From NCBI GenBank assembly GCA_038208905.1, contig JBBQYG010000092.1, forward strand, positions 1-15,397: a stretch of DNA of 15,397 bases, in the 5' to 3' direction. Shown piece after piece: positions 2-14,791 of this stretch. Numbering within the stretch: position 1 is the stretch's first letter; each line of letters begins with the position of its first letter. Under the pieces are notes generated by a model that saw only the letters and a list, made by a program, of their open reading frames with translations, searched no databases and was not told where the DNA came from. The translations under genes were made by a program, and so were the position numbers. This stretch comes from Candidatus Sumerlaeia bacterium. GTDB taxonomy: Bacteria; Sumerlaeota; Sumerlaeia; SLMS01.

Positions 2-574
2 GGTTTCATGGGGCTGCGCGATCTGCTGCCGGCGCTCTCCGATGCGGGGCGCGACGACTTGGCCTACGACCTCGCGCTGCGCGAGCGGTTCCCCGGCTGG
101 GGATATCAGATCGCCAACGGCGCCACAACGATCTGGGAACGGTGGGACGGTTGGACGCGCGAGATGGGCCTTCAGGATCCGGGAATGAACTCATTCAACC
201 ACTATTCACTCGGAGCAGTCGGTCAGTGGATGATGGGCTACATGGGGGGGATCGATGCGGTCACTCCGGGGTACCGGAAATTGCGCATCCGCCCGCGGCT
301 TGATGATCGCCTTTCCCACGTGAAGGCGCGCGTGGAGACGATCCACGGCGCCGCGTCCTGTGCGTGGTCGCAGCGCGGTGGTCCGTTCGAGATGATCTGT
401 CGCATTCCGCCCAATACCACGGCGGAGGTCTGGGTGCCGCGAACGGGCGGTGCATCGCTGCTTGAATCGGGTCTGCCTGTCGAGCAGGCAGAGGGACTGC
501 GGGTGCTGCCGGGCAACGACTCCCACTGGATCGTGGAAGCCGTGCCCGGCCACTACAAGTTCACCTCACACTGA
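2..574 (+). CDS. alpha-L-rhamnosidase (GH78), C-terminal fragment, truncated at the left window edge
   Basis: Frame is open from the edge (GFMGL...). Contains GH78 motifs GATTIWERWD and MNSFNHYSLGAVGQW, then a C-terminal beta-sandwich (IRP...IPPNTTAEV...GHYKF). rhaM lies nearby. Confidence 0.92.
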   Translation, partial: GFMGLRDLLPALSDAGRDDLAYDLALRERFPGWGYQIANGATTIWERWDGWTREMGLQDPGMNSFNHYSLGAVGQWMMGYMGGIDAVTPGYRKLRIRPRLDDRLSHVKARVETIHGAASCAWSQRGGPFEMICRIPPNTTAEVWVPRTGGASLLESGLPVEQAEGLRVLPGNDSHWIVEAVPGHYKFTSH

Positions 575-1564: not shown

Positions 1565-1647
1565 GATTGGAGGGTCCAAGGAAAGGAGTGGATGATGATC
1601 GTTCGCGATTGATTTCGCTTGAGTCACTCCCCCGGGCTCAAGTGAAT

Positions 1648-1665
1648 ATTTATACCGTACTGCAT
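1648..1665. promoter_or_regulatory. Putative LacI-type operator, copy 1 (ATTTATACCGTACTGCAT), in the divergent metE-like/rhaM gap
   Basis: AT-rich island with a central CG. Positions 1646-1659 match 6127-6140 at 13/14. Right half is degenerate. Confidence 0.5.
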
Positions 1666-1714
1666 TCCGGTTTCGAGACGGAGTGAGGCCAATTTTGCGC
1701 CGAAGGAAGCCATC

Positions 1715-2029
1715 ATGTTGCGTAGCGCGTTCAAAATGAAGCTCAAGCCGGGCTTCGAGGCTGAGTACAAGAGGCGCCACGACAAGATCTGGCCGGAACT
1801 CCACGCCGAACTGGTGGCGGCGGGAATCTGCGACTACTCCATTTTTCTCGACCGGGAGACGCTAACTCTCTTTGCAGTCCATAAGCTGACCGTGGACCAT
1901 ACGGCCCACAAGCTTTCCGGAACGGAAATAGTACGCAAGTGGTGGGACCATATGGCCGACATCATGGATGTGAATTCGGATAACTCTCCGGTCGTGCTAA
2001 CCCTCGAAGAAGTGTTCCACATGGAATGA
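1715..2029 (+). CDS. rhaM: L-rhamnose mutarotase
   Basis: 104 aa with RhaM signatures AFKMKLKPG, EYKRRHDKIWPEL, YSIFLD, KWWDHMADIM and LEEVFHM. SD-like GAAGGAAG upstream. Confidence 0.95.
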   Translation: MLRSAFKMKLKPGFEAEYKRRHDKIWPELHAELVAAGICDYSIFLDRETLTLFAVHKLTVDHTAHKLSGTEIVRKWWDHMADIMDVNSDNSPVVLTLEEVFHME

Positions 2030-3195
2030 AATACAATACGAAACAGCCCCCAAGCGCCATGAAGGAAGTCAAGGGCATCACCCACAAGGACATCGCCAAG
2101 TTCGTGGGTGTCAGCCAAGCCACCGTGTCCAAGGTGCTCAACAACAGGTCCAATAGCATCGGCATCAGCCAGAAGACCCGCCAGGCGGTGATCGAGGCGG
2201 CCAAGGAACTGGGCTATAACAAGGACAAGGTGGCGTCGGGCCTCATCCAGCTTGTGGAGAAGAGCATCGGCATCCTGCTGGAGCACATCGCGAATCCGTT
2301 CTGCAGCGTGATTATGAACGGGATCGAGCACGAGCTGAGTGGGAGCGAGTACCAGTACCTTTTCGCGTCGTCCAACGGCGTTCCCGACCGTTCGCTGAAG
2401 TGCATCCAGTCGATGTCGCGCCGGTTCACCTCGGGCTTCATCCTGATGCCCTTCTACGAGTCCAACACCAGCCAGTCGGTCCACCGATTCCTGAAGGGGC
2501 GAGGCATCCCGTTCGTTCGCACAAACTACCATAACCTGCCCAATGAGTACAACGCGCCGTTGGTGGCGTCCAACAACTATGAGATTTTTCGCGCACTGAC
2601 GGAGCACCTGATTGCACAGGGGCACCGGCGCATCGCGGTCGTTCACCCCACGGCGGAGTATTCCAGCATCGCCGATCGCATCAGGGGGTTTCGCGACGCG
2701 ATGCAGGCCGCCGGGCTGGAGGTTCCAGCCTCGTACCTGGTGGAGCATGCGCGTCAGGACTATTTCCAGATCGAGCCGAAGGAGCAGTTGCTGAGTGGGT
2801 GGATGCGGCAGAAAAATCGTCCCACGGCGATCATGACGCTGAAGGACGACTGCGCGATCCAGTTCATTCTCTTGCTCCGCAAGATGGGGCTGTCCGTCCC
2901 CGGGGACATGGCGGTGACGGGGTTCGACGACTATCTGCATTTCCTTCCGAAGTTCTATCACGAGGCCTATCGCGACCTGACGACCGTCCGCCAGAACCTT
3001 CCGGAGATTGGGCGACAGGCGGTGAAGCGCCTGCTGGCGGAGATCGAGTCGGAATTCCCCAAGGATCTCCCGATGGAAGTGGCCGTTCCGGCAGAGTTGA
3101 TGATCCGCGGGTCCTGCGGTGCCACGCTGGCGCAGGCCAAGGACGACTACAAGTTGGAGCTAAAGGGGCTGGGGCTGGGGTACCTGACGCATTGA
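2026..3195 (+). CDS. LacI-family transcriptional regulator
   Basis: N-terminal HTH ITHKDIAKFVGVSQATVSKVLN with hinge ELGY...VASGL. Sugar-binding domain motifs NPF, GHRRIA, RIRGF, VPGDMAVTGFDD, LTTVRQ, LMIRGS. ATGA overlap with the rhaM stop; alternative start at ATG 2059. Confidence 0.95.
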   Translation: MKYNTKQPPSAMKEVKGITHKDIAKFVGVSQATVSKVLNNRSNSIGISQKTRQAVIEAAKELGYNKDKVASGLIQLVEKSIGILLEHIANPFCSVIMNGIEHELSGSEYQYLFASSNGVPDRSLKCIQSMSRRFTSGFILMPFYESNTSQSVHRFLKGRGIPFVRTNYHNLPNEYNAPLVASNNYEIFRALTEHLIAQGHRRIAVVHPTAEYSSIADRIRGFRDAMQAAGLEVPASYLVEHARQDYFQIEPKEQLLSGWMRQKNRPTAIMTLKDDCAIQFILLLRKMGLSVPGDMAVTGFDDYLHFLPKFYHEAYRDLTTVRQNLPEIGRQAVKRLLAEIESEFPKDLPMEVAVPAELMIRGSCGATLAQAKDDYKLELKGLGLGYLTH

Positions 3196-3284: not shown

Positions 3285-6032
3285 GTGATCTTGCGAAATC
3301 TCCTCCTTACGGTACTCCTCTTTGCTGCGCTTGGCGGCACAGCGCAATCCGAGGTCATCGACGGGTTTGAGGGACCGGAACTGGCCGCGCAATGGCTCCC
3401 CCCCGCCAGCGTCGGGAACGAGACGCCCGCGACCCTGGCGTTCGACCTTGCCCACGCGCCGGGCAAGTTGGCGGCGAGCGGCGTCGTGACTCTGGGCGAG
3501 CAGGTACAGTTCCTTATGCTTCGCCCAAACCGGCCACTTGCCGTGGGTGACACGATCCGCCTGCTGATGGGGATGGACGGCGTGGGGCAGAGGTCGGTCG
3601 GCAGCGACTCGGTCTCCGCGGGGTTTGGAATCTTCGACGACCCGATCTCGCCTCGCCGATACGTTCGCCTCAACGTGAACGACGACACGCGGCTGATCCA
3701 TTCCAACGGCAATTCCAGCGTGCTGCCGGGCATCTGGAACGTGGACCAGAGCATCGAGCTTTTCATCCAGCGCGCCGCCCAGTATGAGTACCGCCTTGGC
3801 TACCGTGTGGAGGGTAAGGCGTTTGTGGAACTGGAGGACCGCTATCAGATCCCCGGTCTGGACACTGGGCTTGGCGCGGCGGTCGGGTTGTTCGTCATCT
3901 GGGACGAACGCTCAGGTACGGCGGACGGTAGAATCCTGTTCGACGAGTTGGATTTCGTGGCGAACCCGGGGTTCGCCGCGATCCCCGTGGCGGTCGATGC
4001 GGGGCCGGATCGGTTCTCCTATCCGGGCGAGGTTGTCTATACGAACGGCACGGGGACGACGGGGATAGTGGAGTCCTTTGCGTGGGACTTTGGCGATGCG
4101 GCGAAGCCCAACGACCGCGCCGGCGAGGCCGTGGGCGCGCATGTGTACGATCAGGTTGGTGTCTATACAGCGGCGCTGACCGTGCAGTACGAGGGGGGCG
4201 AGACCGCCACGGATACGGCCACGGTCACGATTGCAGAGAAGCCCGCGGTGACGACGTTGCCGCTGAGGGGGTTTCTTCTGGGCGGTAACAACAACATCCC
4301 GCTGTTCAATGACATCGCCAACTGGGATCGCCAGTTCACGTGGATGGAGGAAGAGGGATACAACATGGGGGTACACCTGCACTTTCACCCCTACCCCTAC
4401 TTTATCCGGATTCCGGGGTATCCCGAGGCCAACAGCAGCGTCAGCGACGCGGAGCTGGCGACGCGGCGCGCGAACTTCGAGACCGTGATCCGAATGGCGG
4501 AAAGCCGGGGAATCGAGACGTGGTTCCTAGTGTACAACATCCACGTGAGCCCGGACTTTGCCGCGTTTCACGGAATCCCCGAGTCGGGGGATTCATTCGA
4601 CGACAGGGGAATGGATAGCGAGCTGGTGCGCGGATATACAACCGCGGCGATCACGGCATTCACGGCGGAGTTTCCGCAAGTCCGCATGAATGTGACCATC
4701 GGCGAATCGCCGATTTCGCCGGTGGAGTTCAACGATGCGGCAGTGTTCAATGCGTTGCGCCAAATGAACCCGCCGCGCGCCACAATCATTCGCGACCAGG
4801 TGGTGCTCCCCTTCGAGATCGAGCGGCTGGCCACGGGGCTCCCGGCACCGTGGCATGTGATGAGCAAGATCACCGAGGAGCAATTTCTGGAGGGGCGCGG
4901 CTATCGAGGACGCCTGTTTCAGGAGGCGCTGGGCAAGCCCACGTTCTACCTCCAGTCGCGCACCTCCGACGGCATGTTCTTTGGCAGCTATCGCATCGCC
5001 CAGGAACAGATCCGCGCGATTGCGGATTCGGGAGGTGCCGGTATTCTGGTCGCCGCCGACGCCAGCATCGAGTGGATGCTGAGAGAGGCATATGGCCGCT
5101 ACATGAACGATCCGCTGCTGGTGGGTTCCGGCGAGGAAACCTTCTGGCAAGGTCGTATCGCCGAGCGCTACGGCATGGGCGTTCCCGCTGCCGACTTCCT
5201 GGAGGCGGGAGAGCATAGCACGCGGATCCTTCCGCTCGTGCGTTCACAGCTGTTCTATCGCAACTGGAACTACCGCACTCAATGGGGCATCCCGCTTATC
5301 TCATTCCTCGGCATGCCGACGGTGACCAGCTATCAGCATGGGAACGCGCATCGACTGGCCGAGGAGGAGGCTTTCTCCTGGTGGTATCCTCGCGAAGCCC
5401 GCAACAGGCGCGACCTGTTGACGGTGCGCGAGTACGTTGACGAGTCCTACGTGAGCCGCGGCGAGGCTTGGACGACGCCGCCACAGATCGCGGGTGAGCT
5501 GGCGTCGCACGCGGCACAGACGTTGGCGCTGATTCCTGCTCTGCGCGGCTTCAATCCGTCCAACAATGTATCGGCCTATCGAAACGAAGTGAACATGATG
5601 GAGGCGGCGGCGCACCTGGGGAACTTCTACGCGTCGAAGCTCCGCGCGGCGATGGCATGGCATCGCTATGCGAGCGGCAAGCAGACCGCCGACGAAGCGC
5701 GTCCGGAGATTCTGACGGGCCTCGCCGATTCGCATCGCCACTTCCGCAAGGCTCGCCTGCTGACTGAGCTGGTGTATGGCGCGGGACATCCGCGGAGCAC
5801 TTTTCGGATGGCTGCGGATGCCGTGCAGCCTCCGTGGCCATCGATCGACCAAAACTATCGTGGGACGATTACCGGCGGGATGGCGGAGGTGGAGAAGGTC
5901 CTCTGCCGCGAGCTCGGCGTGATCGAGCAGTATCTGGCCGACGGAATCAAGACCCTGCCGATCTTTGAAGATATGCAAGCGGGGGCATTGCCGGGTTGCC
6001 CGGATGTTCTGGAGGACTGGACGATTCGGTAA
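3285..6032 (+). CDS. Secreted multidomain protein: signal peptide, beta-rich N-domain, PKD domain, putative glycoside-hydrolase-like barrel and helical C-domain (915 aa)
   Basis: Sec signal MILRNLLLTVLLFAALGGTAQS. PKD signature DAGPD...WDFGD (4083-4097)...HVY...GVYTAALTV at ~3987-4238. Then an alpha/beta segment LRGF...GYN...HPYPYFIRIPGYPEA...AESRGIE...VTIGE resembling uncharacterised GH-type TIM barrels. Function is inferred. Confidence 0.7.
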   Translation: MILRNLLLTVLLFAALGGTAQSEVIDGFEGPELAAQWLPPASVGNETPATLAFDLAHAPGKLAASGVVTLGEQVQFLMLRPNRPLAVGDTIRLLMGMDGVGQRSVGSDSVSAGFGIFDDPISPRRYVRLNVNDDTRLIHSNGNSSVLPGIWNVDQSIELFIQRAAQYEYRLGYRVEGKAFVELEDRYQIPGLDTGLGAAVGLFVIWDERSGTADGRILFDELDFVANPGFAAIPVAVDAGPDRFSYPGEVVYTNGTGTTGIVESFAWDFGDAAKPNDRAGEAVGAHVYDQVGVYTAALTVQYEGGETATDTATVTIAEKPAVTTLPLRGFLLGGNNNIPLFNDIANWDRQFTWMEEEGYNMGVHLHFHPYPYFIRIPGYPEANSSVSDAELATRRANFETVIRMAESRGIETWFLVYNIHVSPDFAAFHGIPESGDSFDDRGMDSELVRGYTTAAITAFTAEFPQVRMNVTIGESPISPVEFNDAAVFNALRQMNPPRATIIRDQVVLPFEIERLATGLPAPWHVMSKITEEQFLEGRGYRGRLFQEALGKPTFYLQSRTSDGMFFGSYRIAQEQIRAIADSGGAGILVAADASIEWMLREAYGRYMNDPLLVGSGEETFWQGRIAERYGMGVPAADFLEAGEHSTRILPLVRSQLFYRNWNYRTQWGIPLISFLGMPTVTSYQHGNAHRLAEEEAFSWWYPREARNRRDLLTVREYVDESYVSRGEAWTTPPQIAGELASHAAQTLALIPALRGFNPSNNVSAYRNEVNMMEAAAHLGNFYASKLRAAMAWHRYASGKQTADEARPEILTGLADSHRHFRKARLLTELVYGAGHPRSTFRMAADAVQPPWPSIDQNYRGTITGGMAEVEKVLCRELGVIEQYLADGIKTLPIFEDMQAGALPGCPDVLEDWTIR

Positions 6033-6161: not shown

Positions 6162-7208
6162 ATGAGCAACCGCACCCTCGATATCAACTGCCATTTCCTT
6201 CCCCCGCCCTTCGTGGAATGGGTGCAGAAGACTGGCCTTGTGATGCCCCACATGCTGGAGCGAGCGCGCCGGATTCCAACGATGGTGGACCTGTCGGCGA
6301 GGCTGGCGGCGATGGACGAGTTTCCCGGATACGCGCAGATCCCCTGCCTGGCAGCGCCGCCGATCGAGAGCTATGCGAGCCCGGCCCAGTCGCCCGATGT
6401 AGCCCGCGCGGCGAACGAGAGCCTGGCGGAACTATGCGCCGCCCATCCCCAGCGATTCCCCTCCTTCGTCGCGTCACTCCCCATGAACAACCGGGAGGCG
6501 ATCCTGAAGGAGGCGCGCCACGCGGTTGAGGAACTGAACGCCGCAGGGGTTCAGATCTTCACAAACATCAACGGGCGGCCGGTGGATGGGTCTGATTGCT
6601 TCGACCTGTACGAACTGATGAACAAGCTGGATCGACCGGTGTGGCTGCACCCCTACCGCGACGAGAAGTTTTCCGACTATGCCAGCGAGAAGGAATCGCT
6701 CTACGAAATCTGGTGGGCTTTCGGCTGGCCCTACGAATCGGCGGCGGCAATGGCGCGGCTGGTCTTTGCGGGGTTGTTTGACCGATTTCCCGACATCAAG
6801 GTGATCACGCACCACGCCGGTGGCTTTGTGCCGATGCTGGAGAATCGCCTGAGTCCGGGCCTTGATGTGATCGGCAACAGAACGGCGACCACGCCGAAGC
6901 GGCCACGCGGCCCGCAGCGCGAATCAATCAAGGACGCCTTCCGTCGGTTCTATGCCGATACCGCGACGTTTGGGTCGGCGCTGGCCATCGACTCGGCAGT
7001 GAGATTTTTCCCCGGCAACCGGTTGCTTTTTGCGACGGATATGCCGTTTAGCGGCGTGGCGGAGGCGGGCATTCGCGCGACATACGAAGCGATGGATAGT
7101 CTGGGATTGGGCGAGGCGGAACGCGACGCAATCCTGATCGGCAACGCGGAGCGCCTCTTGCGCCCCGCTCTAACGCACAAAACGACGGAGGAATCGGCGG
7201 CGGGATGA
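6162..7208 (+). CDS. Amidohydrolase-2 family protein (ACMSD/LigW-like decarboxylase/hydratase/lactonase superfamily)
   Basis: N-terminal DINCH metal motif, AN..LAE, VWLHP, GLFDRFPDIKVITHHAGG, FYADTA, LLFATDMPF (catalytic Asp) and ILIGNAERLL. Confidence 0.9.
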   Translation: MSNRTLDINCHFLPPPFVEWVQKTGLVMPHMLERARRIPTMVDLSARLAAMDEFPGYAQIPCLAAPPIESYASPAQSPDVARAANESLAELCAAHPQRFPSFVASLPMNNREAILKEARHAVEELNAAGVQIFTNINGRPVDGSDCFDLYELMNKLDRPVWLHPYRDEKFSDYASEKESLYEIWWAFGWPYESAAAMARLVFAGLFDRFPDIKVITHHAGGFVPMLENRLSPGLDVIGNRTATTPKRPRGPQRESIKDAFRRFYADTATFGSALAIDSAVRFFPGNRLLFATDMPFSGVAEAGIRATYEAMDSLGLGEAERDAILIGNAERLLRPALTHKTTEESAAG

Positions 7209-8074
7209 ACACGCGAATCGACTGCGTACTGGACGAGATGAGCTGGAATGTGGCAGCGGCGCTGTCAGGCGCCAATCAGGTTGGCCTGCGATTTGGCGTG
7301 GTGCGCATGTGTGGCGAAACGCGCTTTCCCGAAGTGTCGGAGAGCGACTGGACGCTTCTGGATTCAGCGGTGGAATCCGGTCGATTGGTGGTGAAGAACG
7401 TCTCGCCGGGTCTTTACAAGGAGGACTTCACGGCAACCGATCTGAATGCGCGAATCGCGCGCGACGTGGCTCAGACGTCGATCGGCGCGCGGCGGCTGGG
7501 AGCCTCTGCGGTGTCGCTTTTCTCCTGGAAAAAATCGCCGGGTGCCGCCGCCCCGCCGATTGGAGAACCCAGCCCCGCGATGCCGGGCGAGTTGCCGAAG
7601 TACGTTCGCCTCCTTGCAGATGGGCTGCACGCGGAGGGGATGACTCCCCTGCTTGAGAATTGCTACTGGCAGTGGGGCGATTCAGGTGCCGCCACGGCGG
7701 AGTTGATTCGCCGCTCGGGAAGTGCCAATCTGCGCCTACTGTGGGATCCCGCCAATTCGATCGCGGCGCGCTGGGACTGGCACCGCGAGGTTGGCGCCGG
7801 CGAGTTTGCTGCCACGGAATTGCTCCTTGGGGAGCTACGTGACGCGTCGAGCTTGGTGGGTGGCGTCCATGTGCGCGATATCGCGCTGGATGCGAACGGG
7901 TGGAAGTGGGTGCCGCTTGGCGATGGAGTGATCGATTGGAATCGCATCCTGCGGGCGCTTGACGAAATTGGATACGAGGGGCCGCTCACGATCGAGCATC
8001 ACCTTCCCAACAAGATCGAGGCAACGCGCCACGCGTTCAACTTCCTCAGCATCCACGCGATGCAGCTTCAATGA
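7205..8074 (+). CDS. Xylose-isomerase-like (AP endonuclease 2) TIM-barrel sugar isomerase/epimerase/lyase family protein
   Basis: Metal-ligand pattern LLEN / WDPAN / VHVRD / LTIEH plus PLGDGVIDW...GYEG. ATGA overlap with the upstream gene. Confidence 0.88.
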   Translation: MNTRIDCVLDEMSWNVAAALSGANQVGLRFGVVRMCGETRFPEVSESDWTLLDSAVESGRLVVKNVSPGLYKEDFTATDLNARIARDVAQTSIGARRLGASAVSLFSWKKSPGAAAPPIGEPSPAMPGELPKYVRLLADGLHAEGMTPLLENCYWQWGDSGAATAELIRRSGSANLRLLWDPANSIAARWDWHREVGAGEFAATELLLGELRDASSLVGGVHVRDIALDANGWKWVPLGDGVIDWNRILRALDEIGYEGPLTIEHHLPNKIEATRHAFNFLSIHAMQLQ

Positions 8075-9078
8075 CCAAGCGGCTTCGCATCGGTTTCCTT
8101 GGGACTGGCCAGTGGGCCAACTATGTCGCGCGCGCCATTGGCGGAGTCGCTGACTTCGAGATGGCAGCCTGCTATTCAGTGGACGAAGCCGAGCGTGCAA
8201 GCTTCGCGGCTGCTACGGGATGTGCCATCTGTCGGTCGGAGGAGGAGTTGCTTCGCGACTCCTCGCTCGACGCCGTGTGCATCCTGACACCCAACGATCT
8301 CCACCACGATCAGGCGCTTCGCTCGATGGCGCAGGGCCTGAACGTCTTCGTGGAAAAGCCGATCGCATCGACCAGCGGCGAGGCCGCCTCCATGATCGCC
8401 GCCGCGAGTAAGGCGAATGTTCGACTATTCGTGGGACACAACACGCGGCGCGGGGCGCGATTCCGTCGGATGAAGGAGATGATCGACGCGGGAGAGATCG
8501 GGAAACCGATCATCTCGCATGTTTCCTTCACTTCCTCGGCGGGGCTCGGGCAGCAGCTCGGGTCGTGGCGCTATGATCCGAAGCGCACGCGCGCGGTGGC
8601 ACTTGCCCAGATAGGAATCCACGCAATCGATCTGCTGAACTACTTTTTCGGAGAACCTGAGGCAGTCAGCGCGGATATACGTTCCAGCGGGGCGGCGGGC
8701 CAGATCGAGGACCTCTGCATGGCGCGGATTCGCTTCGCCAGCGGCGTGATCGCAACATTCGACAATGCCTACAGCGTAACGCGCAATCGCAGCCTCTCGA
8801 TCATGGGGACGGCGGGGGCGCTGTTCACGCCGCACGAAAGGCTGCTGATCCATCGCGATGCGAAGGGCGTGGATCGCCAGATCGAGACCCCTGACAACGA
8901 CACCGTCGGCGAAGAATTCGAGGAGTTCGCCGCCGCCATTCGCGGCAATCGCGAGCTCGAGACGACGGGCGAGGTTGGCGCGCTCGCGATGGCGGTGATG
9001 GAGGCGATGATTTGCTCGAGCGAATCGCGGATCGAAGTTGGCGTGAACAGAATCAGCGCGGGAAACGCGGTCGAATGA
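8071..9078 (+). CDS. Gfo/Idh/MocA family NAD(P)-dependent oxidoreductase
   Basis: Rossmann IGFLGTGQWA, DAVCILTPNDLH, VFVEKP, VGHNTRR, GEIG and IGIHAID. ATGA overlap with the upstream gene. Confidence 0.93.
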   Translation: MTKRLRIGFLGTGQWANYVARAIGGVADFEMAACYSVDEAERASFAAATGCAICRSEEELLRDSSLDAVCILTPNDLHHDQALRSMAQGLNVFVEKPIASTSGEAASMIAAASKANVRLFVGHNTRRGARFRRMKEMIDAGEIGKPIISHVSFTSSAGLGQQLGSWRYDPKRTRAVALAQIGIHAIDLLNYFFGEPEAVSADIRSSGAAGQIEDLCMARIRFASGVIATFDNAYSVTRNRSLSIMGTAGALFTPHERLLIHRDAKGVDRQIETPDNDTVGEEFEEFAAAIRGNRELETTGEVGALAMAVMEAMICSSESRIEVGVNRISAGNAVE

Positions 9079-10424
9079 GGCGGCGCCTACTCGCCGCGGG
9101 AGTCCTCTCGCTTGCCCTTGCCGGGCCGGCGGCGGCGGTCAGCGCTGTCGATCATGAATCCATACAGGCGGCACTCGATGCGAATCCCGGCGAGCTCGTC
9201 TACGTCCCGCCCGGGAGGTACGAGATCGACAGGACGCTCTTCGTTCGGACAGCCAACTCGGGGCTCTATGGTTCCGGCACAATCGTCCAGACGAACAGGG
9301 ACGAGTCCATCGTCCGAATTGAGGGCGACGGGGCCCGCGTTTCGGGCGTGACGCTGACTCGTAGCGAGTCGGGCCTCGGCGGCACGCAGGAGGGCATCGT
9401 CGCGGTCAGCTCGCGCAACGTGGTGATCGATGGGATTCGCGTCCTGAACAACCGCAGCAAGGGTGGCGCGATCACACTTCGCAACAGCAACGCCGGCACC
9501 ATTCGCAACTGCGTGGTGGAGAACTACAAGTGCGTGACCATCGAGAACCGCATGGCCGACCCGAACTCGGGCTACTCGTTCCGCTGCCTCGACGGCACGG
9601 GGATTGTGGCAGCGGGATCGAGCAGTTCCATGATCACCGGCAATCGGGTGGTCGAGCACGAGTTCCTTCCGACGCGCGAGATCCGGGACAGGTACAAGCT
9701 CGGCGATCTGACAGAGAAGCAGGAGAAGCCGGGACTGCTCGTCGATCAGGAGATTTGGGGACTCAACTATACGCGCAACTGGCACCAGGGGTCGGGGATT
9801 ATCGTCTCGGCGCTGGGGCGATCAAACTGCACCATCCTGACCGACAACGTCGTGGAGAACCCGGCGCAGGGATTCGACCTGCACACCGACAACGCGATCG
9901 TGGCGAGCAACATCGTCCATCACGCGCTGATGGGCATAAAGGCGATCCACGGATCGACGCACACGCTGATCGAGGGGAACCAGTTCATCGCCGTGGACAT
10001 ATACGGCGTCCTGCTGGGGCCGGGAAATGTATCCTACGCGGCGCGGAAGCCCGCCGATTTCCCCGATGCCTACACCGCGAACGTGGACGGCGGCACAGTC
10101 GTCGCCAACAACATCGTCTCGGAATTTGGCTTTGGCGGTCAGGAGTGGAATTGGCCCTGGGATGGAGCAGCGTTCAACGTGGCGAGCGGACCATTCCCAG
10201 AGAATTCGCCCGTTCGTGATGTGTTGATCCGGCAGAACATCGCCTATGACGCGGGACGCGATGGGATCATCGTGGACGTCGAGCCAAAGGTGGTGGAGCC
10301 CCACTTCTCCTACGCATTTTACCAGGAACTGGAACGCGAGCCACTCCCGACGAACATCCAGGTATTGGACAACCTGTTTCACCCGGGCTTGAAGGGCATT
10401 GCGAATACCGACAGCGTCAAGTAG
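9075..10424 (+). CDS. Secreted right-handed parallel beta-helix protein, paralog 1 (449 aa)
   Basis: Signal peptide MRRRLLAAGVLSLALAGPAAA. N-cap SIQAALDA...YVPPGRYEI. Repeated I-x-x-N-x-[VI] rungs. ATG 9075 overlaps the oxidoreductase TGA. Confidence 0.88.
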   Translation: MRRRLLAAGVLSLALAGPAAAVSAVDHESIQAALDANPGELVYVPPGRYEIDRTLFVRTANSGLYGSGTIVQTNRDESIVRIEGDGARVSGVTLTRSESGLGGTQEGIVAVSSRNVVIDGIRVLNNRSKGGAITLRNSNAGTIRNCVVENYKCVTIENRMADPNSGYSFRCLDGTGIVAAGSSSSMITGNRVVEHEFLPTREIRDRYKLGDLTEKQEKPGLLVDQEIWGLNYTRNWHQGSGIIVSALGRSNCTILTDNVVENPAQGFDLHTDNAIVASNIVHHALMGIKAIHGSTHTLIEGNQFIAVDIYGVLLGPGNVSYAARKPADFPDAYTANVDGGTVVANNIVSEFGFGGQEWNWPWDGAAFNVASGPFPENSPVRDVLIRQNIAYDAGRDGIIVDVEPKVVEPHFSYAFYQELEREPLPTNIQVLDNLFHPGLKGIANTDSVK

Positions 10425-10452
10425 GCCAAAATCCCATCGAGGAGTAGTTGCC

Positions 10453-11841
10453 ATGCGAGTGACCAAGTTTGCCGTTGCAGGATTCCTGATCGCGGCGGGA
10501 ACTGCGCTCGCGGCGAAGGCCGGCCAGATCAGCTCCGCCGACTACGCCTCGATTCAGGCCGCCATCGACGCCAACCCCGGCGAGATGATCTTTGTTGCTA
10601 ACGGTAGGCACGAGATCGACAAGTCGTTGATGATCACGACGGCGAATGCCGGCCTCTATGGCCCCGGCACTATCGTCCAGAAGAACGTGAACGAATGCCT
10701 ATTGAGAATCATGCAGACCGAGGGCGTTCGGATTGAGGGCCTGACCTTCACCCGGCCCGAAGGGGCCACTGATACCACGCAGGAGGGTGTGTTCATCCGC
10801 GAATCCAGCAACGTCACCCTCGATGGAATCCGCATTATCGACAATCGCGGACCCGGCGGATCGATCTCCGCCTACAAGTGCGCGAACCTCACGATCCGCG
10901 ACAGCTTCATCGAGAACTACAAGTCGCTCTTCATCGACGACCGCATGAAGCCGGAGGACCTCTATGGGTACGCGTTCCAGTCGATCGACGGCACGGGGAT
11001 CAAGGCGTTTCACAACACGGGCATCGTGATCCGCGGCAACCGCGTGGTCGAATCCCACTTCATCCCCAGCAAGGAGAACGTGGAGAAGCTGGGGCTGGGG
11101 AAGATCACCAAGGTTGCGGAAAAGCTGGGCCGCCTGGCGCCCGTTCAGGATATCAAGGCTGGCTATACCTCCAACTGGCACCAGGGTTCGGCGATCATCG
11201 TCGGCGGGCTCGGCCACTCGAACTTCACCATCATCGCCGAGAACTACATCGAGAACGCCGCCCAGGGAATCGACATCCACGCCGACAACGTGACCATCAG
11301 CAACAATATCGTCAACGGCGGCATCATGGGGATGAAGGCGATGCATGGTTCCCGCAACGTATTGATCGAGGGGAACCAGTTCCTGAACGTGGACCTGTGG
11401 GGGATCATGCTGATGCCGGGGGCGGGTTCGCATCCCGCGCGTTCGCAGAAGGAGAATCCCGAGAAGTTCGAGGCCAACAACGATGGCGGCACGATCATCG
11501 CCAACAACATTATCAGCAACTTTGGCTATGGACCCCAGCGCTGGAACTGGGGCGGCAAGGATGGCGGCACCACGACACAATCGCCCATCGCGCTGATGGG
11601 CGGCCAGCTCGCGGAAAATCCCCCACTCAAGGACGTGCTCATCATGGGCAATATCGTCTATGACACGGGCCGCGATGGAGTGATCGAGAACGGAGAGCCC
11701 ACGGTGGAGGGTCCGCGATATCAGTATGCCCTGTATGTGGAGCAGACAAAGGAGCCCAAGCCCCAGAACGTGATCGTGCGTGGGAACATCTTCAACGCAG
11801 GTAGCAAGGGTGTGGCGAATTTCGAGCTTCCCGCCCAGTAG
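10453..11841 (+). CDS. Secreted right-handed parallel beta-helix protein, paralog 2 (462 aa)
   Basis: SD GAGGAG at 10439-10444. Signal peptide MRVTKFAVAGFLIAAGTALA. SIQAAIDANPG cap and Asn-ladder rungs. Collinear with paralogs 1 and 3. Confidence 0.9.
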   Translation: MRVTKFAVAGFLIAAGTALAAKAGQISSADYASIQAAIDANPGEMIFVANGRHEIDKSLMITTANAGLYGPGTIVQKNVNECLLRIMQTEGVRIEGLTFTRPEGATDTTQEGVFIRESSNVTLDGIRIIDNRGPGGSISAYKCANLTIRDSFIENYKSLFIDDRMKPEDLYGYAFQSIDGTGIKAFHNTGIVIRGNRVVESHFIPSKENVEKLGLGKITKVAEKLGRLAPVQDIKAGYTSNWHQGSAIIVGGLGHSNFTIIAENYIENAAQGIDIHADNVTISNNIVNGGIMGMKAMHGSRNVLIEGNQFLNVDLWGIMLMPGAGSHPARSQKENPEKFEANNDGGTIIANNIISNFGYGPQRWNWGGKDGGTTTQSPIALMGGQLAENPPLKDVLIMGNIVYDTGRDGVIENGEPTVEGPRYQYALYVEQTKEPKPQNVIVRGNIFNAGSKGVANFELPAQ

Positions 11842-11869
11842 CTGGGTGGATACATACGAGGAGGAAGCG

Positions 11870-13255
11870 ATGAGAAAGACATTGATTGCGATCGCGGGCA
11901 TCATGCTCTCGGCAGGAACGGCCTTTGCCGCCAAGGGCATGATCAGCAGCGCGGACTACGATTCCATTCAGGCCGCCATCGACGCGAACCCGGGCGAGAT
12001 GGTTTTCGTTCCCAATGGCCGCCACGAGATCGAGAAGTCGCTCATGATCACGACCAAGAACTCCGGCCTCTACGGCCCCGGCACCATCGTTCAGAAGAAC
12101 ACGGAGGAGTGTCTTCTACGGATCACCGACACCGACGGCGTTCGCATCGAGGGGCTGACCTTCACCCGGCCCGAAGGTGCCACCGACACCACGCAGGCAG
12201 GCATCTTCATCGGCGACGCCAGCAACATCACAGTCGATGGCGTCCGCGTGATCGACAATCGTGGGCCTGGCGGATCGATCGATTGCCACCTGACCGAGAG
12301 TGTCACTATTCGCGACTGCTACATCGAGAACTACAAGTCGCTCTTTGTCGACGACCGGATGGAGCCGGCAGACCTCTACGGATATGCCTTTCAGTCGATC
12401 GATGGCACGGGAATCAAGGCACTCAACAACAATGGGATCATGATCCGCGGAAATCGGGTAGTGGAGAAACACTTCATCCCGACAAAAGAGAACGTGGAAA
12501 GGCTTGGACTCGGCAAGATCACCAAGGTGGGGGAGAAGCTGGGCCGACTCGCGCCGCTCGAAGACATCAAGGCTGGATATACGTCGAACTGGCACCAAGG
12601 GTCGGCCATCGTGGTTGCTGGATTGGGGCACGCGCGCCTCGCTATTGTCGCGGATAACCATGTGGAGAACGCGGCCCAGGGCATCGACGTTCACGCAGAC
12701 AATGTGATACTGAGTAATAACATCGTCGATGGCGCCATTCTGGGTATGAAGGCGATGCACGGCTCGCGCCATGTACTGATCGAGGGAAACCAGTTCATCA
12801 ATGTGGATATGTGGGGGATCATGCTGATGCCGGGGGCGGGTTCGCATCCAGCGCGGTCACAAAAAGACAATCCGGAGAAGTTCGAGGCTAACACCGACGG
12901 CGGCACCATCATCGCCAACAACATCATCAGCAACTTTGGCTATGGCGCGCAGCGGTGGAACAGCAAGGGCGGGATGGAGGGTCTTCCCCACCATTGCCCG
13001 ATCACGATCCGCGGCGGCCAACTTCCCGAAAACCCGTCGCTCAAGGACGTGCTCATTACTGGCAACATCGTGTACGATTCCGGTCGCGATGGCGTGATCG
13101 AGAATGGCGAGGCGAAGGTTGCGGCACCGCGGTATCATCACGCCCTGTATATCGAGCAGACAAGGGAGCCACTCCCCCAGAACGAGATCGTCCGCGGGAA
13201 CATCTTCAACACGGGCAACAAGGGCGTCGCGAACTTCGATCTGCCGCCGCAGTAG
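11870..13255 (+). CDS. Secreted right-handed parallel beta-helix protein, paralog 3 (461 aa)
   Basis: SD GAGGAGG upstream. Signal peptide MRKTLIAIAGIMLSAGTAFA. Aligns almost without gaps to paralog 2. Confidence 0.9.
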   Translation: MRKTLIAIAGIMLSAGTAFAAKGMISSADYDSIQAAIDANPGEMVFVPNGRHEIEKSLMITTKNSGLYGPGTIVQKNTEECLLRITDTDGVRIEGLTFTRPEGATDTTQAGIFIGDASNITVDGVRVIDNRGPGGSIDCHLTESVTIRDCYIENYKSLFVDDRMEPADLYGYAFQSIDGTGIKALNNNGIMIRGNRVVEKHFIPTKENVERLGLGKITKVGEKLGRLAPLEDIKAGYTSNWHQGSAIVVAGLGHARLAIVADNHVENAAQGIDVHADNVILSNNIVDGAILGMKAMHGSRHVLIEGNQFINVDMWGIMLMPGAGSHPARSQKDNPEKFEANTDGGTIIANNIISNFGYGAQRWNSKGGMEGLPHHCPITIRGGQLPENPSLKDVLITGNIVYDSGRDGVIENGEAKVAAPRYHHALYIEQTREPLPQNEIVRGNIFNTGNKGVANFDLPPQ

Positions 13256-13269
13256 CTCCACGACAGCAA

Positions 13270-14739
13270 TCAGGGGGGTGTCCCGATGTAGTTGTTCATG
13301 TAGGTCGGGCTATCGACGGCGGGGTGGATGAACTTGGCTCGCCGGGCATAGTCGCCATTGATGTCGGCGTAGATCGCCTTCATTTCCTCGAGCATCGAAT
13401 CGGCGATATCGGAGTGCTTTGTGGCGAGGTTCCATTTCTCCGCCGCGTCCATGTCGAGGTTGTAGAGCTCGACGCGCTTCCAGCCAAGATCGCACATCAA
13501 CTTCCACGGACCGCGGCGCATGGCGAGCTGGGGGCTTGCGAATTCGGGGCCCTCGGGGAGGAGCGAGCGCGCCATTTCGTACTGCCAGTAGAGTGCGTGG
13601 GGTCGCGTGATCGGCTCGCCCTCCAGCGCGGGGCGGAAATCCGCCCCATCGTAGGGAATTCCACCGGGCACCTCCGCACCAGCGGCGGCGCAGAGCGTCG
13701 GCATCACATCGAGGAGCGAGACGGCCTGATGCACGACCAACCCGGCGGGTGCTACGCCGGGCCAGCGAACGATCCCGGGCACACGGATCCCGGCCTCGTA
13801 GATATTATGCTTTCCTCCGCGGAACGGTCCCGAGTTGCCGCGCGAATTCTCCATCCATGGAATCGTGTGCGGATCACAGCCATTGTCACTGGAGTAGATG
13901 ACGATGGTATTGTCGGCGAGACCCTTCTCGTCGAGGTAGTCGAGGAGTCGAGAGTACTGATCCTCCTGCTGTGTGATGGTGCCGAGGTAGATCTGCTCCT
14001 GCTTCGTGCGGTCGGGATAGCGAGCCATATACTCTTCGGAGCACTGGGCCTCCCCGTGTGGGGAGAAGCTCCACAGGTTGATAAAGAAAGGCTCTCCGTC
14101 GCCGGCCTCGATGAACTTGATCGCTTCGTCCACATAGACCTCCGCGGTCCATCGCCCCTCGGTCCTGGTTTGGCCAGTCGCGAGATGCCAACCCGAGCTG
14201 AAGTAGGAAGTCGTCCTGCCGGCGCCGAGAATCATCCAATGGTCGAAGCCGTAGTCTGTGGGAGTAGCGACTCCGAGATGGCTGCGCTCGACCAGGCTGA
14301 CGTGCCACTTGCCGATGTGGGCCGTACGGTAGCCAACACCTTTGAGTAGGCGGGCAAGCGATGGCTCCTCCAGCGGAATTTGATGGAAAGGCGGAATGCT
14401 TGTCTTATCGCCCTCGTTGAGGATATGCTTCATCCCGAAACGGTTGGGATCGCGACCCGTTAGCAACGCGGCCCGGGATGGCGAGCAGACGGGAAATGCC
14501 GCCGTCATATCGGTGAAGCGCACGCCCTCCCGCGCGAGTCGATCCGCGGCGGGAGTCTGGATGACAGGGTGCCCGGCGCATGCAATATCCATCCATCCTT
14601 GGTCGTCGTTCAGCAGAATCACGACGTTGGGGCGTGTCTTCTCGGCGGCGCTAGACTTCGATATGCTGATGAAGCCCGCTACCAACGCCGCCGCGAGCAG
14701 TCCGATCGAATGTTGAGTCTTGGCGTGCAGCAATTGCAT
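13270..14739 (-). CDS. Secreted formylglycine-dependent (S1, Cys-type) sulfatase
   Basis: RPNVVILLNDDQG; CSPSR (14473-14487) followed by AALLTG; GYRTAHIGKWH; SPH; YSSDNG; GGKHNIYEAGIRVP; ELYNL. Signal-like N-terminus. ATG 14739 chosen for an upstream AAGGGG; 14760 is an alternative. Confidence 0.94.
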   Translation of the reverse strand: MQLLHAKTQHSIGLLAAALVAGFISISKSSAAEKTRPNVVILLNDDQGWMDIACAGHPVIQTPAADRLAREGVRFTDMTAAFPVCSPSRAALLTGRDPNRFGMKHILNEGDKTSIPPFHQIPLEEPSLARLLKGVGYRTAHIGKWHVSLVERSHLGVATPTDYGFDHWMILGAGRTTSYFSSGWHLATGQTRTEGRWTAEVYVDEAIKFIEAGDGEPFFINLWSFSPHGEAQCSEEYMARYPDRTKQEQIYLGTITQQEDQYSRLLDYLDEKGLADNTIVIYSSDNGCDPHTIPWMENSRGNSGPFRGGKHNIYEAGIRVPGIVRWPGVAPAGLVVHQAVSLLDVMPTLCAAAGAEVPGGIPYDGADFRPALEGEPITRPHALYWQYEMARSLLPEGPEFASPQLAMRRGPWKLMCDLGWKRVELYNLDMDAAEKWNLATKHSDIADSMLEEMKAIYADINGDYARRAKFIHPAVDSPTYMNNYIGTPP

Positions 14740-14791
14740 GTGTGAAGCGCCCCTTAGCATGACGGTCGGCGAGTCTGTGTGGCAAACGGTG

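Follow-up and report, generated by a model that had tools for sequence, protein, structure and literature searches.

Three tandem genes for secreted beta-helix proteins in a glycan-utilization locus: a candidate new family of carbohydrate enzymes

What do three adjacent genes for secreted beta-helix proteins contribute to a glycan-utilization locus: a glycosidase, a polysaccharide lyase, a polysaccharide modifier, or no enzyme at all? In soil, groundwater, lakes, and wastewater, a major part in breaking down recalcitrant glycans falls to Verrucomicrobiota, Planctomycetota, Hydrogenedentota, and Omnitrophota, and many proteins that these bacteria secrete lack annotation. We analyzed a stretch of DNA of 15,397 nucleotides (here, the window) for which the original prediction was a candidate new lyase or epimerase family.

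The predicted array at 9075..13255 consists of three same-strand open reading frames that together begin and end exactly where predicted.</find><why>c, d, w: broken junction and stray token removed; 'fill' ignores the spacers; run reworded</why></edit>
<edit><find>BH1 departs from the family consensus at D162E, D163N, and W316Y; the set of invariant residues described below is retained in all three.</find><replace>Three substitutions (D162E, D163N, and W316Y) set BH1 apart from the consensus of the family; the set of invariant residues described below is retained in all three paralogs. Their products, BH1, BH2, and BH3, are listed in Table 1 with coordinates that reflect the most plausible start codons. 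The ATG of BH1 overlaps the stop codon of the upstream oxidoreductase (GFO) gene in the sequence ATGA, and the 28-nt spacer upstream of the BH2 ATG contains GAGGAG. The three proteins are paralogs, with pairwise identities (47% for BH1/BH2, 49% for BH1/BH3, and 77% for BH2/BH3) far above chance, and two tandem duplications would have produced the three copies. Both young copies, BH2 and BH3, are under purifying selection (dN/dS = 0.14), and their divergence is greatest in alignment columns 361 to 380, a loop. BH1 departs from the family consensus at D162E, D163N, and W316Y; the set of invariant residues described below is retained in all three. Secretion had also been predicted correctly, as each protein has a Sec-type signal peptide (basic n-region, hydrophobic core, AxA-like site). 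A hydrophobicity heuristic, used here in place of SignalP, found a signal-peptide-like N terminus in 64 of 65 aligned family members. From their sequences, BH1, BH2, and BH3 are predicted to be Sec-exported, single-domain proteins.

Table 1. Features of the window (positions in nucleotides)
Feature	Position	Strand	Remarks
GH78 alpha-L-rhamnosidase, C-terminal end	2..574	+	cut by window edge
MetE-like gene (Meth_synt_2, 'core' size)	566..1804	-	likely start 1561
LacI-family regulator	2026..3195	+	head of + strand gene row
915-aa secreted protein with PKD domain	3285..6032	+	
Amidohydro_2 protein	6162..7208	+	closest solved: uncharacterized hydrolase 3ij6, then metal-dependent decarboxylases
Xylose-isomerase-like TIM-barrel protein	7205..8074	+	overlaps both neighboring genes
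Cytoplasmic Gfo/Idh/MocA oxidoreductase (GFO)	8071..9078	+	closest solved relative 1,5-anhydro-D-fructose reductase
BH1, 449 aa	9075..10424	+	secreted beta-helix paralog, older lineage of array
BH2, 462 aa	10453..11841	+	secreted beta-helix paralog; protein used for structure model
BH2 candidate catalytic motif NWHQGS	11173-11190	+	
BH2 candidate catalytic motif ENAAQGIDIHADN	11251-11289	+	
BH2 candidate catalytic motif GMKAMHGS	11329-11352	+	
BH3, 461 aa	11870..13255	+	lineage-specific BH2 duplicate
Secreted S1 sulfatase	13270..14760	-	convergent with BH3; closest solved relative S1_16 kappa-carrageenan sulfatase
Different beta-helix protein, C-terminal 201 aa	14792..15397	-	NosD/Beta_helix Pfam matches

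Judged by its predicted gene content, the window is a LacI-headed glycan-utilization locus. Its other genes include the GH78 fragment, the sulfatase gene, a gene for a protein with weak likeness to GH138, and genes for three cytoplasmic enzymes that process sugars. The amidohydrolase, TIM-barrel, GFO, and BH1 genes form a chain of overlapping genes. We call the PKD protein weakly GH138-like on the basis of residues 337 to 475, which weakly resemble PDB chain BPa0997 (E 3e-7), presumably a GH138 enzyme. The beta-helix fragment at the window's end is 78% identical to a region of another family locus (L001). A promoter and terminator scan was uninformative, returning fewer sites than in shuffled sequence.

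The family to which the three proteins belong (the BH family) comprises more than 1270 protein clusters and 355 genomic loci, mainly in the four lineages named above. It is compact, with scores falling sharply beyond approximately 30 full-length 50%-identity clusters. Source names are "hypothetical" or generic, save for a few unsupported automatic labels (NosD, polygalacturonase). Literature searches returned no mention of locus tag CfE428DRAFT_6043, only unrelated GH9 work for the motif strings, and nothing on the family among papers on beta-helix proteins with sulfatase, rhamnosidase, or MocA or on new Verrucomicrobia glycoside hydrolases. Tandem amplification is frequent and reaches nine copies on a single Opitutaceae contig; a single copy was called in 62 of 72 loci, counting the window as one, and we therefore set aside a heterotrimer of BH1, BH2, and BH3. 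Members are abundant and tightly conserved, and they lie in glycan-utilization loci. Characterizing one member would provide annotation for hundreds of "hypothetical" genes and define a new beta-helix catalytic motif; the gain would be incremental if the activity turned out to be that of a common glycosidase on a polymer already known.

Each of the ten motifs listed in the original prediction is present once in each paralog, and invariant polar residues outside the Asn ladder, as it had described, were confirmed in an alignment of 65 family sequences at approximately 45% identity. The motifs do not merely reflect recent common ancestry of the three copies. There are 28 invariant columns, and the invariant polar residues are R101, R164, D179, W242, Q244, Q271, D274, H276, D278, K295, and H298. 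In addition, N155, Y156, N241, H243, and E267 are conserved in at least 90% of the sequences, with H243 present in 60 of the 65. Conservation peaks in the hairpin at residues 155 to 182 (0.73), coil 6 (0.70), and coil 7 (0.71). The long loop insertions are likewise conserved across the family (gap fraction ≤2%); the interval between GNRVVE and NWHQGS, put at approximately 45 aa in the prediction, counts as 40 aa. We assigned residues to coils from the DSSP strands of the BH2 model and from their register, counted from the conserved Gly that precedes each PB1 strand. By these measures, the invariant residues fall on four consecutive coils (4 to 7) around PB1. Two conserved loop insertions lie next to them, and an acidic i/i+4 pair adjoins a Lys on the adjacent coil. 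Consecutive coils bearing invariant residues with flanking insertions look like an active-site cleft.

The beta-helix fold itself was borne out. Pfam Beta_helix PF13229 exceeds its gathering score in all three paralogs (38.4, 55.9, and 52.0 bits versus a cut-off of 25.9), the AlphaFold (AF2) model of BH2 is a confident right-handed beta-helix with regular strand triplets (pLDDT 93, pTM 0.91), and all Foldseek matches are beta-helices. These matches are largely carbohydrate enzymes and tailspikes at 9 to 14% identity, the best of them at TM 0.4 to 0.55; Foldseek against BFVD returned generic tailspikes (TM ≤0.55), and ESM Atlas matches were limited to generic beta-helix clusters. PDB sequence searches with 3-sequence and 65-sequence profiles returned nothing below E 0.0096, the weak profile matches being to ebulin, ferredoxin, enoyl-CoA hydratase, the uncharacterized 4mxn, and an inulin fructotransferase cap. 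The NCBIfam scan returned only sub-threshold NosD and generic beta-helix models, and tblastn against plasmids returned no match. No Pfam family of the PL1, PL3, PL6, or PL9 type is listed for BH1-3, nor did these families give a PDB sequence match. In BH1, the N-terminal cap scores 35.3 bits for Pfam Pect-lyase_RHGA_epim, above the cut-off of 27. A precomputed table assigned PF22842 (Pel9A-like_beta_helix) to BH2 and BH3, which our own Pfam scan did not reproduce. In keeping with the original prediction, which could not assign the motifs to GH28, PL1, PL6, PL9, GH110, or GH120, no characterized family could be assigned by Pfam, NCBIfam, PDB sequence search, or Foldseek; the Foldseek likeness is at the level of the fold. 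The BH family is a reasonable candidate for a new carbohydrate-enzyme family when compared with families that have a Pfam model or a solved structure.

A secreted beta-helix need not be catalytic, and the weak Pfam NosD and NCBIfam NosD_copper_fam matches, together with the PfbA adhesin among the Foldseek matches, would suit a role in glycan binding or adhesion, or as an accessory protein of the NosD kind. We consider such a role extremely unlikely. The NosD_copper_fam model (TIGR04247) scores 25 to 36 bits versus a cut-off of 300, no ABC partner is encoded in the window, and no NosF or NosY partners were found among the scanned neighbors of family members. Invariant Asp, His, Lys, Arg, and Gln residues cluster on consecutive coils rather than forming a repetitive surface. 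As weaker evidence, the proteins are short and single-domain, and a search of the family for longer, fused forms found none and no anchor domain either. On these grounds, we rejected the adhesin and NosD readings.

An enzyme on this fold might modify a polysaccharide rather than cleave it, as an AlgE/AlgG-type C5-epimerase or a CE8-like Gln/Asp esterase would. The mannuronan C5-epimerases and bifunctional lyases AlgE4, AlgE7, and AlgG (PDB 2pyg, 5lw3) share the beta-helix (Foldseek E 6e-7), and AlgE4 and AlgE6 are among the best Foldseek matches. The stacked invariant Q244 and Q271 beside Asp may also recall the CE8 oxyanion hole. The D-x-H on PB1 (D274-I-H276) recalls the DPH(D/E) motif of AlgG and AlgE, the His of which abstracts H-5 (PMC4444821, PMC8824271). 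The AlgE-type catalytic residues are Y149, D152, and H154 in one motif plus D178 on the next coil (PMC8824271); the BH family likewise has an Asp-x-His pair within a strand and another candidate catalytic residue on the coil that follows. However, when matched by motif spacing, the Tyr position of AlgE (three residues before Asp) is the invariant Gln271 in the BH family, and the next-coil Asp is replaced by K295/H298. The BH family also lacks R-modules, shows 12 to 14% identity with no HMM-level match, has no sequence match to 2pyg or CE8 Pfam models, and is encoded in catabolic rather than biosynthetic loci. We regard a non-cleaving modifier as very unlikely.

A polysaccharide lyase is a more serious alternative, if a doubtful one. 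It would act by beta-elimination on a uronate-containing, possibly sulfated glycan, with K295 or H276 as Brønsted base and the carboxylate neutralized either by Ca2+ on D274/D278/Q244 or by R101/R164. The top Foldseek match is RbmB, a Vibrio cholerae VPS lyase (PDB 9ozl/9ozd; E 7e-8, TM 0.53/0.67), followed by AlgE4, PL6 AlyF, and chondroitinase B. RbmB is likewise a single-domain right-handed beta-helix with a substrate groove. PL6 enzymes (chondroitinase B 1ofm, AlyF 7bz0, Pedsa0632 7o7a; beta-helices with Foldseek E 8e-7 to 3e-6) have acidic residues on one strand and basic catalytic residues nearby. The BH invariants, which include a Lys, two Arg, two His, and the acidic pair, resemble the Lys-carboxylate-Ca2+ logic of RbmB, where K227 acts with E253 and Ca2+ and the carboxylate that partners the catalytic Lys sits one coil away (PMC12993940). 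A review states that Ca2+, Lys, and Arg serve in PL6 catalysis (PMC4444821). In contrast to these likenesses, RbmB shares 13% identity and no sequence-level relationship with the BH family, is approximately 100 aa shorter, and has the reverse order of Lys and carboxylate along the coils, and its description does not include the H/Q/D-x-H-x-D set. The PL6 enzymes show no sequence similarity, a TMq of 0.28 to 0.48, and different residue identities, and there is no sequence-level match to any PL structure. Moreover, Foldseek scores for RbmB, AlgE4, and PL6 are about equal to those for GH28, GH91, GH110, and tailspikes.

Gene neighborhoods elsewhere in the family also bear on the lyase. Overall they are weakly conserved, with 29 of 71 loci lacking a predicted operon partner and many neighbors being housekeeping genes. 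GFO orthologs adjoin family members in four loci across three subclades (L001, L012, L028, L064), and MetE-like homologs lie directly upstream in two (L015, L028). A sulfatase is the immediate neighbor in five loci, GH106, GH2, GH16, and SASA esterases also occur nearby, and a PL10-type Pec_lyase gene lies approximately 4 kb upstream in one locus (L038). Unsaturated uronates are processed through an isomerase and a reductase step, which the TIM barrel (isomerase-like) and GFO (keto-reductase-like) might supply as non-orthologous substitutes. However, no Glyco_hydro_88-type (unsaturated-uronate hydrolase) family was seen among 299 scanned neighbor proteins; scanning took in all but 118 of 251 further ORFs within 6 kb. 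In four loci, a family member lies between GH32 genes (L004, L024, L025, L042), with an MFS sugar transporter alongside in three (L004, L024, L042) and a PfkB kinase in one (L024); the proteins of L004 and L025 (P0036, P0071) retain the invariant residues. Because this association is confined to one verrucomicrobial clade, we count it as one event. No uronate is expected in such GH32/fructokinase operons, which argues against a uronate-specific lyase. Of the original prediction, then, the uncharacterized family stands; with Foldseek evenly divided, no unsaturated-uronate hydrolase seen, and the GH32 clade, its lyase or epimerase chemistry is not established.

We favor instead, tentatively and at somewhat less than even confidence, a glycosidase-type enzyme (hydrolase or transglycosylase) that cleaves glycans, with both chemistry and substrate putative. 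Its active site would be a cleft on sheet PB1 of coils 4 to 7, with D274, H276, and D278 (coil 6) and K295 and H298 (coil 7) at the center. W242, H243, and Q244 (coil 5), Q271, and D179 with R164 from the conserved hairpin would form the wall, and the conserved 45-residue insertion (residues 200 to 245) would flank the cleft. Most likely, the D274 and D278 carboxylates would serve as acid/base while His, Lys, and Arg position or polarize the substrate. The three copies may be cotranscribed with the cytoplasmic oxidoreductase, isomerase-like, and amidohydrolase genes. Given the rhamnosidase and sulfatase in the locus, the copies probably attack different linkages of one glycan, which would be complex, partly sulfated, and rhamnose-containing. 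Cleavage would take place extracellularly or in the periplasm, followed by import and processing of the sugars set free.

Several observations count against a glycosidase. The invariant Lys, two Arg, and His with D-x-H also suit a beta-elimination or epimerase site, and the Foldseek matches with the lowest E-values are a lyase and an epimerase. The weak conservation of gene neighborhoods, the PL10-type gene of L038, and the confinement of the GH32 association to one clade also weigh against it.

Among known glycosidases, the GH28 exo-polygalacturonases and rhamnogalacturonases (3jur, 5olp, 4c2l) are beta-helices (TMq 0.50 to 0.54) that occur beside rhamnosidases in pectin-type loci, and loops close the cleft in exo-acting members. 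Unlike them, the BH family lacks the NTD/DD/GHG/RIK motif set; PF00295 is absent at E ≤10 and no GH28 chain appears in the PDB profile search, the likeness being at fold level with 9 to 12% identity. GH91 inulin fructotransferase/DFA-III hydrolase (2inu, 9j4l; Foldseek E 5e-6) is, to our knowledge, the only fructan-active beta-helix family, and it is found beside GH32 enzymes, like the verrucomicrobial BH clade. It works as a trimer with the active site at the interface. The best GH91 sequence match, however, is not significant (E 0.13) and covers only residues 30 to 73, in the N-terminal cap, and TMq is 0.37 to 0.46. An unlikely alternative is a new CAZy-level family with a catalytic constellation not described before on a beta-helix (stacked Gln244/Gln271, Asp274-x-His276-x-Asp278, and Lys295-x-x-His298), in which GH91-like elimination or intramolecular transfer, instead of simple hydrolysis, would give anhydro- or keto-sugars. 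Such chemistry would tie together two otherwise unrelated contexts of the family: the GH32/fructokinase operons of Verrucomicrobiota and, in the window's half of the tree, the repeated pairing of family members with GFO (the relative of 1,5-anhydro-D-fructose reductase) and a xylose-isomerase-like TIM barrel.

The three paralogous genes that the original prediction placed side by side are present as three consecutive plus-strand ORFs (BH1, BH2, and BH3; see the table), and each motif it listed occurs once in each protein; the gap between GNRVVE and NWHQGS, put at approximately 45 residues, is 40. We set each start at the first ATG that was preceded by a purine-rich site or was translationally coupled. 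The ATG of BH1 shares bases with the stop codon of the gene before it (ATGA), and the BH1-BH2 and BH2-BH3 spacers are 28 nt each, both with GAGGAG. BH1 shares 47% identity with BH2 and 49% with BH3, and BH2 and BH3 are 77% identical. All three N-termini have a basic n-region followed by a hydrophobic core and an AxA-like site, and a simple hydrophobicity heuristic (not SignalP) found a signal-peptide-like N-terminus in 64 of 65 aligned family members.

Coordinates of features in the window and in loci elsewhere that encode relatives (L numbers)
Feature	Location	Coordinates	Strand	Length
GH78 rhamnosidase C-terminus	window	2-574	+	
MetE-like protein	window	566-1804	-	
LacI regulator	window	2026-3195	+	
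Secreted PKD protein	window	3285-6032	+	915 aa
Amidohydro_2	window	6162-7208	+	
Xylose-isomerase-like TIM barrel	window	7205-8074	+	
Gfo/Idh/MocA oxidoreductase (GFO)	window	8071-9078	+	
BH1, BH2, BH3 together	window	9075-13255	+	
BH1	window	9075-10424	+	449 aa
BH2	window	10453-11841	+	462 aa
BH3	window	11870-13255	+	461 aa
Sulfatase, convergent	window	13270-14760	-	
End of different beta-helix protein	window	14792-15397	-	201 aa
Relative grouping with BH1	L001	4317-5672		
Relative grouping with BH2 and BH3	L001	5705-7087		
Match to different beta-helix protein (tblastn)	L001	7192-7794	-	
Separate beta-helix ORF	L001	8396-10546		717 aa
Fructan-type operon	L004, L024, L025, L042	about 5000-17000 in each		
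MetE-like	L015	81-1091		
Methyltransferase-like	L028	8746-9762		
Methyltransferase-like	L028	5834-6898		
Methyltransferase-like	L035	11343-12470		
Methyltransferase-like	L045	11379-12512		
Methyltransferase-like	L058	11344-12477		
Methyltransferase-like	L046	7041-8477		
PhyH-like dioxygenase	L028	6944-7741		
PhyH-like dioxygenase	L038	9173-9985		

An AlphaFold2 model of BH2 built on the 65-sequence alignment (pLDDT 93.0, pTM 0.91) is a right-handed beta-helix with its strands in regular triplets. Foldseek returned 188 PDB matches at E ≤ 0.001, and the approximately 40 listed were all beta-helices, at 9 to 14% identity and TM of approximately 0.3 to 0.55. They included RbmB lyase (E 7e-8), AlgE4 epimerase (6e-7), PL6 AlyF (8e-7), and GH28 exo-polygalacturonase (1.3e-6), with tailspikes, GH91, GH110, PfbA, and NosD lower among those listed; a search of BFVD gave tailspikes and depolymerases at the same level of similarity. 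The array had been read beforehand as a candidate new lyase/epimerase family. Both activities are among the top matches, and E-values are marginally better for lyases and epimerases, but the ranking does not single out lyases. An epimerase or esterase activity seems to us quite improbable.

In Pfam, all three proteins passed the Beta_helix cut-off; the NosD cut-off of 23.6 bits was passed by BH1 and BH2 and missed by BH3 (20.3 bits), and Pect-lyase_RHGA_epim matched the N-terminal cap and exceeded its cut-off in BH1 only. An NCBIfam scan of the BH proteins gave only sub-threshold models. The protein collection's precomputed domain table assigns PF22842 (Pel9A-like_beta_helix in the atlas output) to BH2 and BH3; our own hmmscan against Pfam did not list it for either, even at E ≤ 10. 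Because profile searches of PDB sequences returned nothing under E 0.0096 and the Foldseek matches are generic beta-helices, we found no strong match to a characterised family in Pfam, NCBIfam, the PDB profile searches, or Foldseek; such a match had been named in advance as counting against the original prediction. Membership of the BH family in GH28, PL1/3/6/9, GH91, the AlgE/AlgG epimerases, or NosD was not demonstrable, and literature searches found nothing on the family. It is a probable new family inside the well-known class of beta-helix carbohydrate enzymes, set apart from those CAZy families that have a Pfam model or solved structure, and it probably resembles beta-helix glycan depolymerases in its mode of working.

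A BH2 search (8,000 candidates scored) matched more than 1,270 clusters at E ≤ 0.001. These are alike in length (approximately 430 to 510 aa) and approximately 45% identical. A few bear the automatic labels "NosD" or "polygalacturonase"; the others are named "hypothetical" or "right-handed parallel beta-helix repeat-containing protein." A 65-member profile searched against 1.84 billion representatives gave 1,865 matches at E ≤ 0.001 and just 118 at ≤ 1e-30, of which approximately 30 are full-length clusters and the remainder fragments; given this steep drop, the family is compact and well apart from other beta-helix proteins. Relatives are encoded in 355 stretches of species-representative genomes. 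The best 80 of these 355 loci come from Verrucomicrobiota, Planctomycetota, Hydrogenedentota, Omnitrophota, and a few other phyla, and nearly all are MAGs; the sole records among them not titled MAG or "uncultured" are Chthoniobacter flavus Ellin428 (homolog CfE428DRAFT_6043) and Tundrisphaera sp. TA3. A search for longer fused forms found none, which we treat as weak evidence, and no plasmid copy was found. Tandem arrays are a repeated feature of the family: members were called in 72 loci, with the window taken as a single locus, and the gene is single in 62 and present in two to four copies in 10. In the nine loci without a called member, the crude ORF caller had chosen an overlapping frame. 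The largest expansion seen is on an Opitutaceae MAG contig (SXSC01000256.1), where nine copies in three clusters (L016, L052, and L079) span approximately 75 kb and adjoin two GH106 rhamnosidases, SASA esterases, and a xylose-isomerase-like barrel.

The 65-sequence alignment has 28 invariant columns, several of which are Gly or the ladder Asn of x-G/N-N-x-I/F turns (N264, N285, N308, N352, N400, and N445; BH2 numbering). Other invariant residues are R101, R164, F175, D179, W242, Q244, Q271, D274, H276, D278, K295, and H298, and at least 90% conservation is seen at N155, Y156, D162, D163, E200, N241, H243 (60 of 65), E267, D314, W316, and D408. We derived the coil register from the model's DSSP strands and the conserved Gly before each first strand (G182, G245, G272, and G293). 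By this register, the conserved residues would occupy consecutive coils round one sheet: D179 in the loop that leads into coil 4; N241, W242, H243, and Q244 just ahead of coil 5; Q271, followed along coil 6 by D274, H276, and D278; in coil 7, K295, which would stack on D274, and H298, which would be close to H276/D278; and D314 and W316 ahead of coil 8. The WHQ, DxH, and KAxH motifs thus appear to share a face, in agreement with what had been expected of them. Two loop insertions flank it. One is a hairpin at 155-182 that bears N155, Y156, D162, D163, R164, and F175; the other, at 200-245, is a helix-strand-helix insert. The whole family has both (gap fraction ≤ 2%), and few segments are better conserved than the hairpin, with a column mean of 0.73 versus 0.47 to 0.59 for coils 1 to 5. 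This face is the usual active-site position in beta-helix enzymes. The predicted cluster supports an enzyme rather than an adhesin. We rate a non-catalytic role as very improbable.

The invariant Lys, two Arg, and two His (H276 and H298), together with H243, would suit a uronate lyase acting by beta-elimination. Also in favour of beta-elimination are the D274-x-H276 pair, comparable to the Asp-x-His pair of AlgE/AlgG (PMC8824271, PMC4444821), the Lys beside a carboxylate of the adjacent coil, an arrangement likewise described for RbmB (PMC12993940), and the slightly better Foldseek E-values of lyases and epimerases.

Successive genes from 6162 to 10424 in the window are joined by 4-nt overlaps and are therefore most likely co-translated; they include an unusual cytoplasmic trio of Amidohydro_2, TIM barrel, and GFO. 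The nearest solved relative of the oxidoreductase is 1,5-anhydro-D-fructose reductase (E 7e-32), and that of the sulfatase is an S1_16 kappa-carrageenan sulfatase (E 2e-61). For Amidohydro_2 the nearest are an uncharacterised hydrolase and then decarboxylases; the protein is closer to decarboxylases than to lactonases. Solved structures related to the barrel are all but lacking (best E 0.0017). In the secreted PKD protein, residues 337-475 have a weak match (E 3e-7) to PDB chain BPa0997, which we take to be a GH138 alpha-galacturonidase. The C-terminal region of the PKD protein, approximately 600 aa, has no Pfam family, and the protein may be another unclassified glycosidase. The window is a glycan-utilisation locus, and its substrate is probably a complex polymer, sulfated and rhamnose-containing. 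Considering the secreted single-domain beta-helix, the enzyme-like invariant cluster, and the catabolic glycan loci, we are fairly confident that the BH family comprises carbohydrate-active enzymes of an uncharacterised family.

We called ORFs in the 80 loci crudely (longest non-overlapping, at least 100 aa). Family members have 133 immediate neighbours, of which we scanned 132, leaving out one ORF of 1,862 aa because of its size. Fuller scans covered 34 proteins of L001, L012, L016, L028, and L064 and 104 + 29 of 251 further ORFs within 6 kb. Recurrent among the immediate neighbours were sulfatases (five proteins in five loci), GH32 with a LamG-like domain (five proteins in L004, L024, L025, and L042), GFO orthologs at 44 to 58% identity (L001, L012, L028, and L064), URO-D-like proteins (L035, L045, and L058), and MetE-like proteins (L015 and L028). 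MttB-like (L046) and GH106 and SASA esterase (L016) neighbours also occurred, as did single cases of GH123_N-like, GHL10, GxGYxYP, GH67N-like, and BT_1020-like proteins. The remaining immediate neighbours were mostly unrelated, and 29 of 71 loci had no predicted operon partner. GFO adjacency occurs in three subclades of the FastTree phylogeny. The Omnitrophota locus L028 repeats much of the window's gene set: LacI, URO-D-like, PhyH-like, TIM barrel, MetE-like, family member, sulfatase, second family member, GFO, SSF transporter, sulfatase, and another beta-helix protein.

A fructan-type operon surrounds the family member at four verrucomicrobial loci (L004, L024, L025, and L042), which we count as one event because they form one tight clade. 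An MFS sugar transporter lies immediately upstream in L004, L024, and L042, and in L024 a PfkB kinase separates this transporter from the first GH32; the gene order in L024 and L042 is then GH32, family member, GH-like protein, GH32. Between the beta-helix gene and the last GH32, these operons carry either a sulfatase or a GH123_N/GHL6-like protein. The invariant residues are retained in P0036 (from L004) and P0071 (from L025), the latter with Arg at 243.

We tentatively prefer glycosidase-type chemistry, either hydrolysis or transglycosylation, over uronate lyase, epimerase/esterase, or non-catalytic roles. In our judgement the GH base rate is higher among beta-helix enzymes in such loci. In addition, unsaturated-uronate processing genes were absent near any scanned member (no Glyco_hydro_88-type family among 299 scanned neighbour proteins; a PL10-type Pec_lyase lies approximately 4 kb upstream in L038, one case). 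Above all, the GH32/fructokinase operons point to a substrate without uronate, yet their family members have the same putative catalytic residues. The last two observations also speak against the uronate lyase, which we rate as unlikely but a serious alternative. A small but appreciable share of the probability we leave unassigned. Within the glycosidase reading, a GH91-like, anhydro-sugar-forming reaction has a small probability; if true, it would tie the fructan operons to the anhydrofructose-reductase-like neighbour.

Three methyltransferase-like kinds recur beside family members (core MetE-like, Meth_synt_2; URO-D-like; MttB-like) and may hint at handling of methylated sugars. The MetE-like gene of L015 abuts the beta-helix gene, and the window's MetE-like protein contains H-x-C and D-C-G, presumably the Zn-ligand motifs of MetE. 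Genes for PhyH-like Fe(II)/2-oxoglutarate dioxygenases lie near family members of different clades, directly upstream in L038 and, in L028, approximately 2.2 kb upstream, where the gene is on the opposite strand and two others intervene. Several distinct beta-helix families share these loci (further examples are L064 and L028). The different beta-helix protein in the window, represented by its C-terminal 201 aa with NosD/Beta_helix matches, is 78% identical over all 201 aa to a region of L001 and matches a separate ORF there weakly (40% over 75 aa).

We built a FastTree phylogeny from 84 family ORFs of the loci retrieved. In it, one L001 member groups with BH1 (56% identity, support 100), the other is the partner (support 100) of the sister pair BH2 and BH3 (support 98), and all five form a single clade (support 95). 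These pairings indicate that the split between BH1 and BH2/BH3 is older than the divergence from the L001 organism and that the duplication giving BH2 and BH3 occurred only in the window's lineage. This duplication is not recent (dS approximately 1.0), and purifying selection acts on each copy (dN/dS 0.14). Their divergence peaks at alignment columns 361-380, the loop after coil 8 (40% identity versus 70 to 95% elsewhere), a sequence pattern that would fit diversification of substrate subsites round a fixed catalytic core. Among the 65 aligned members, BH1 alone has Glu for Asp162; it shares Asn for Asp163 with one other member and Tyr for Trp316 with two others. These deviations map to the conserved hairpin and the coil-8 loop.
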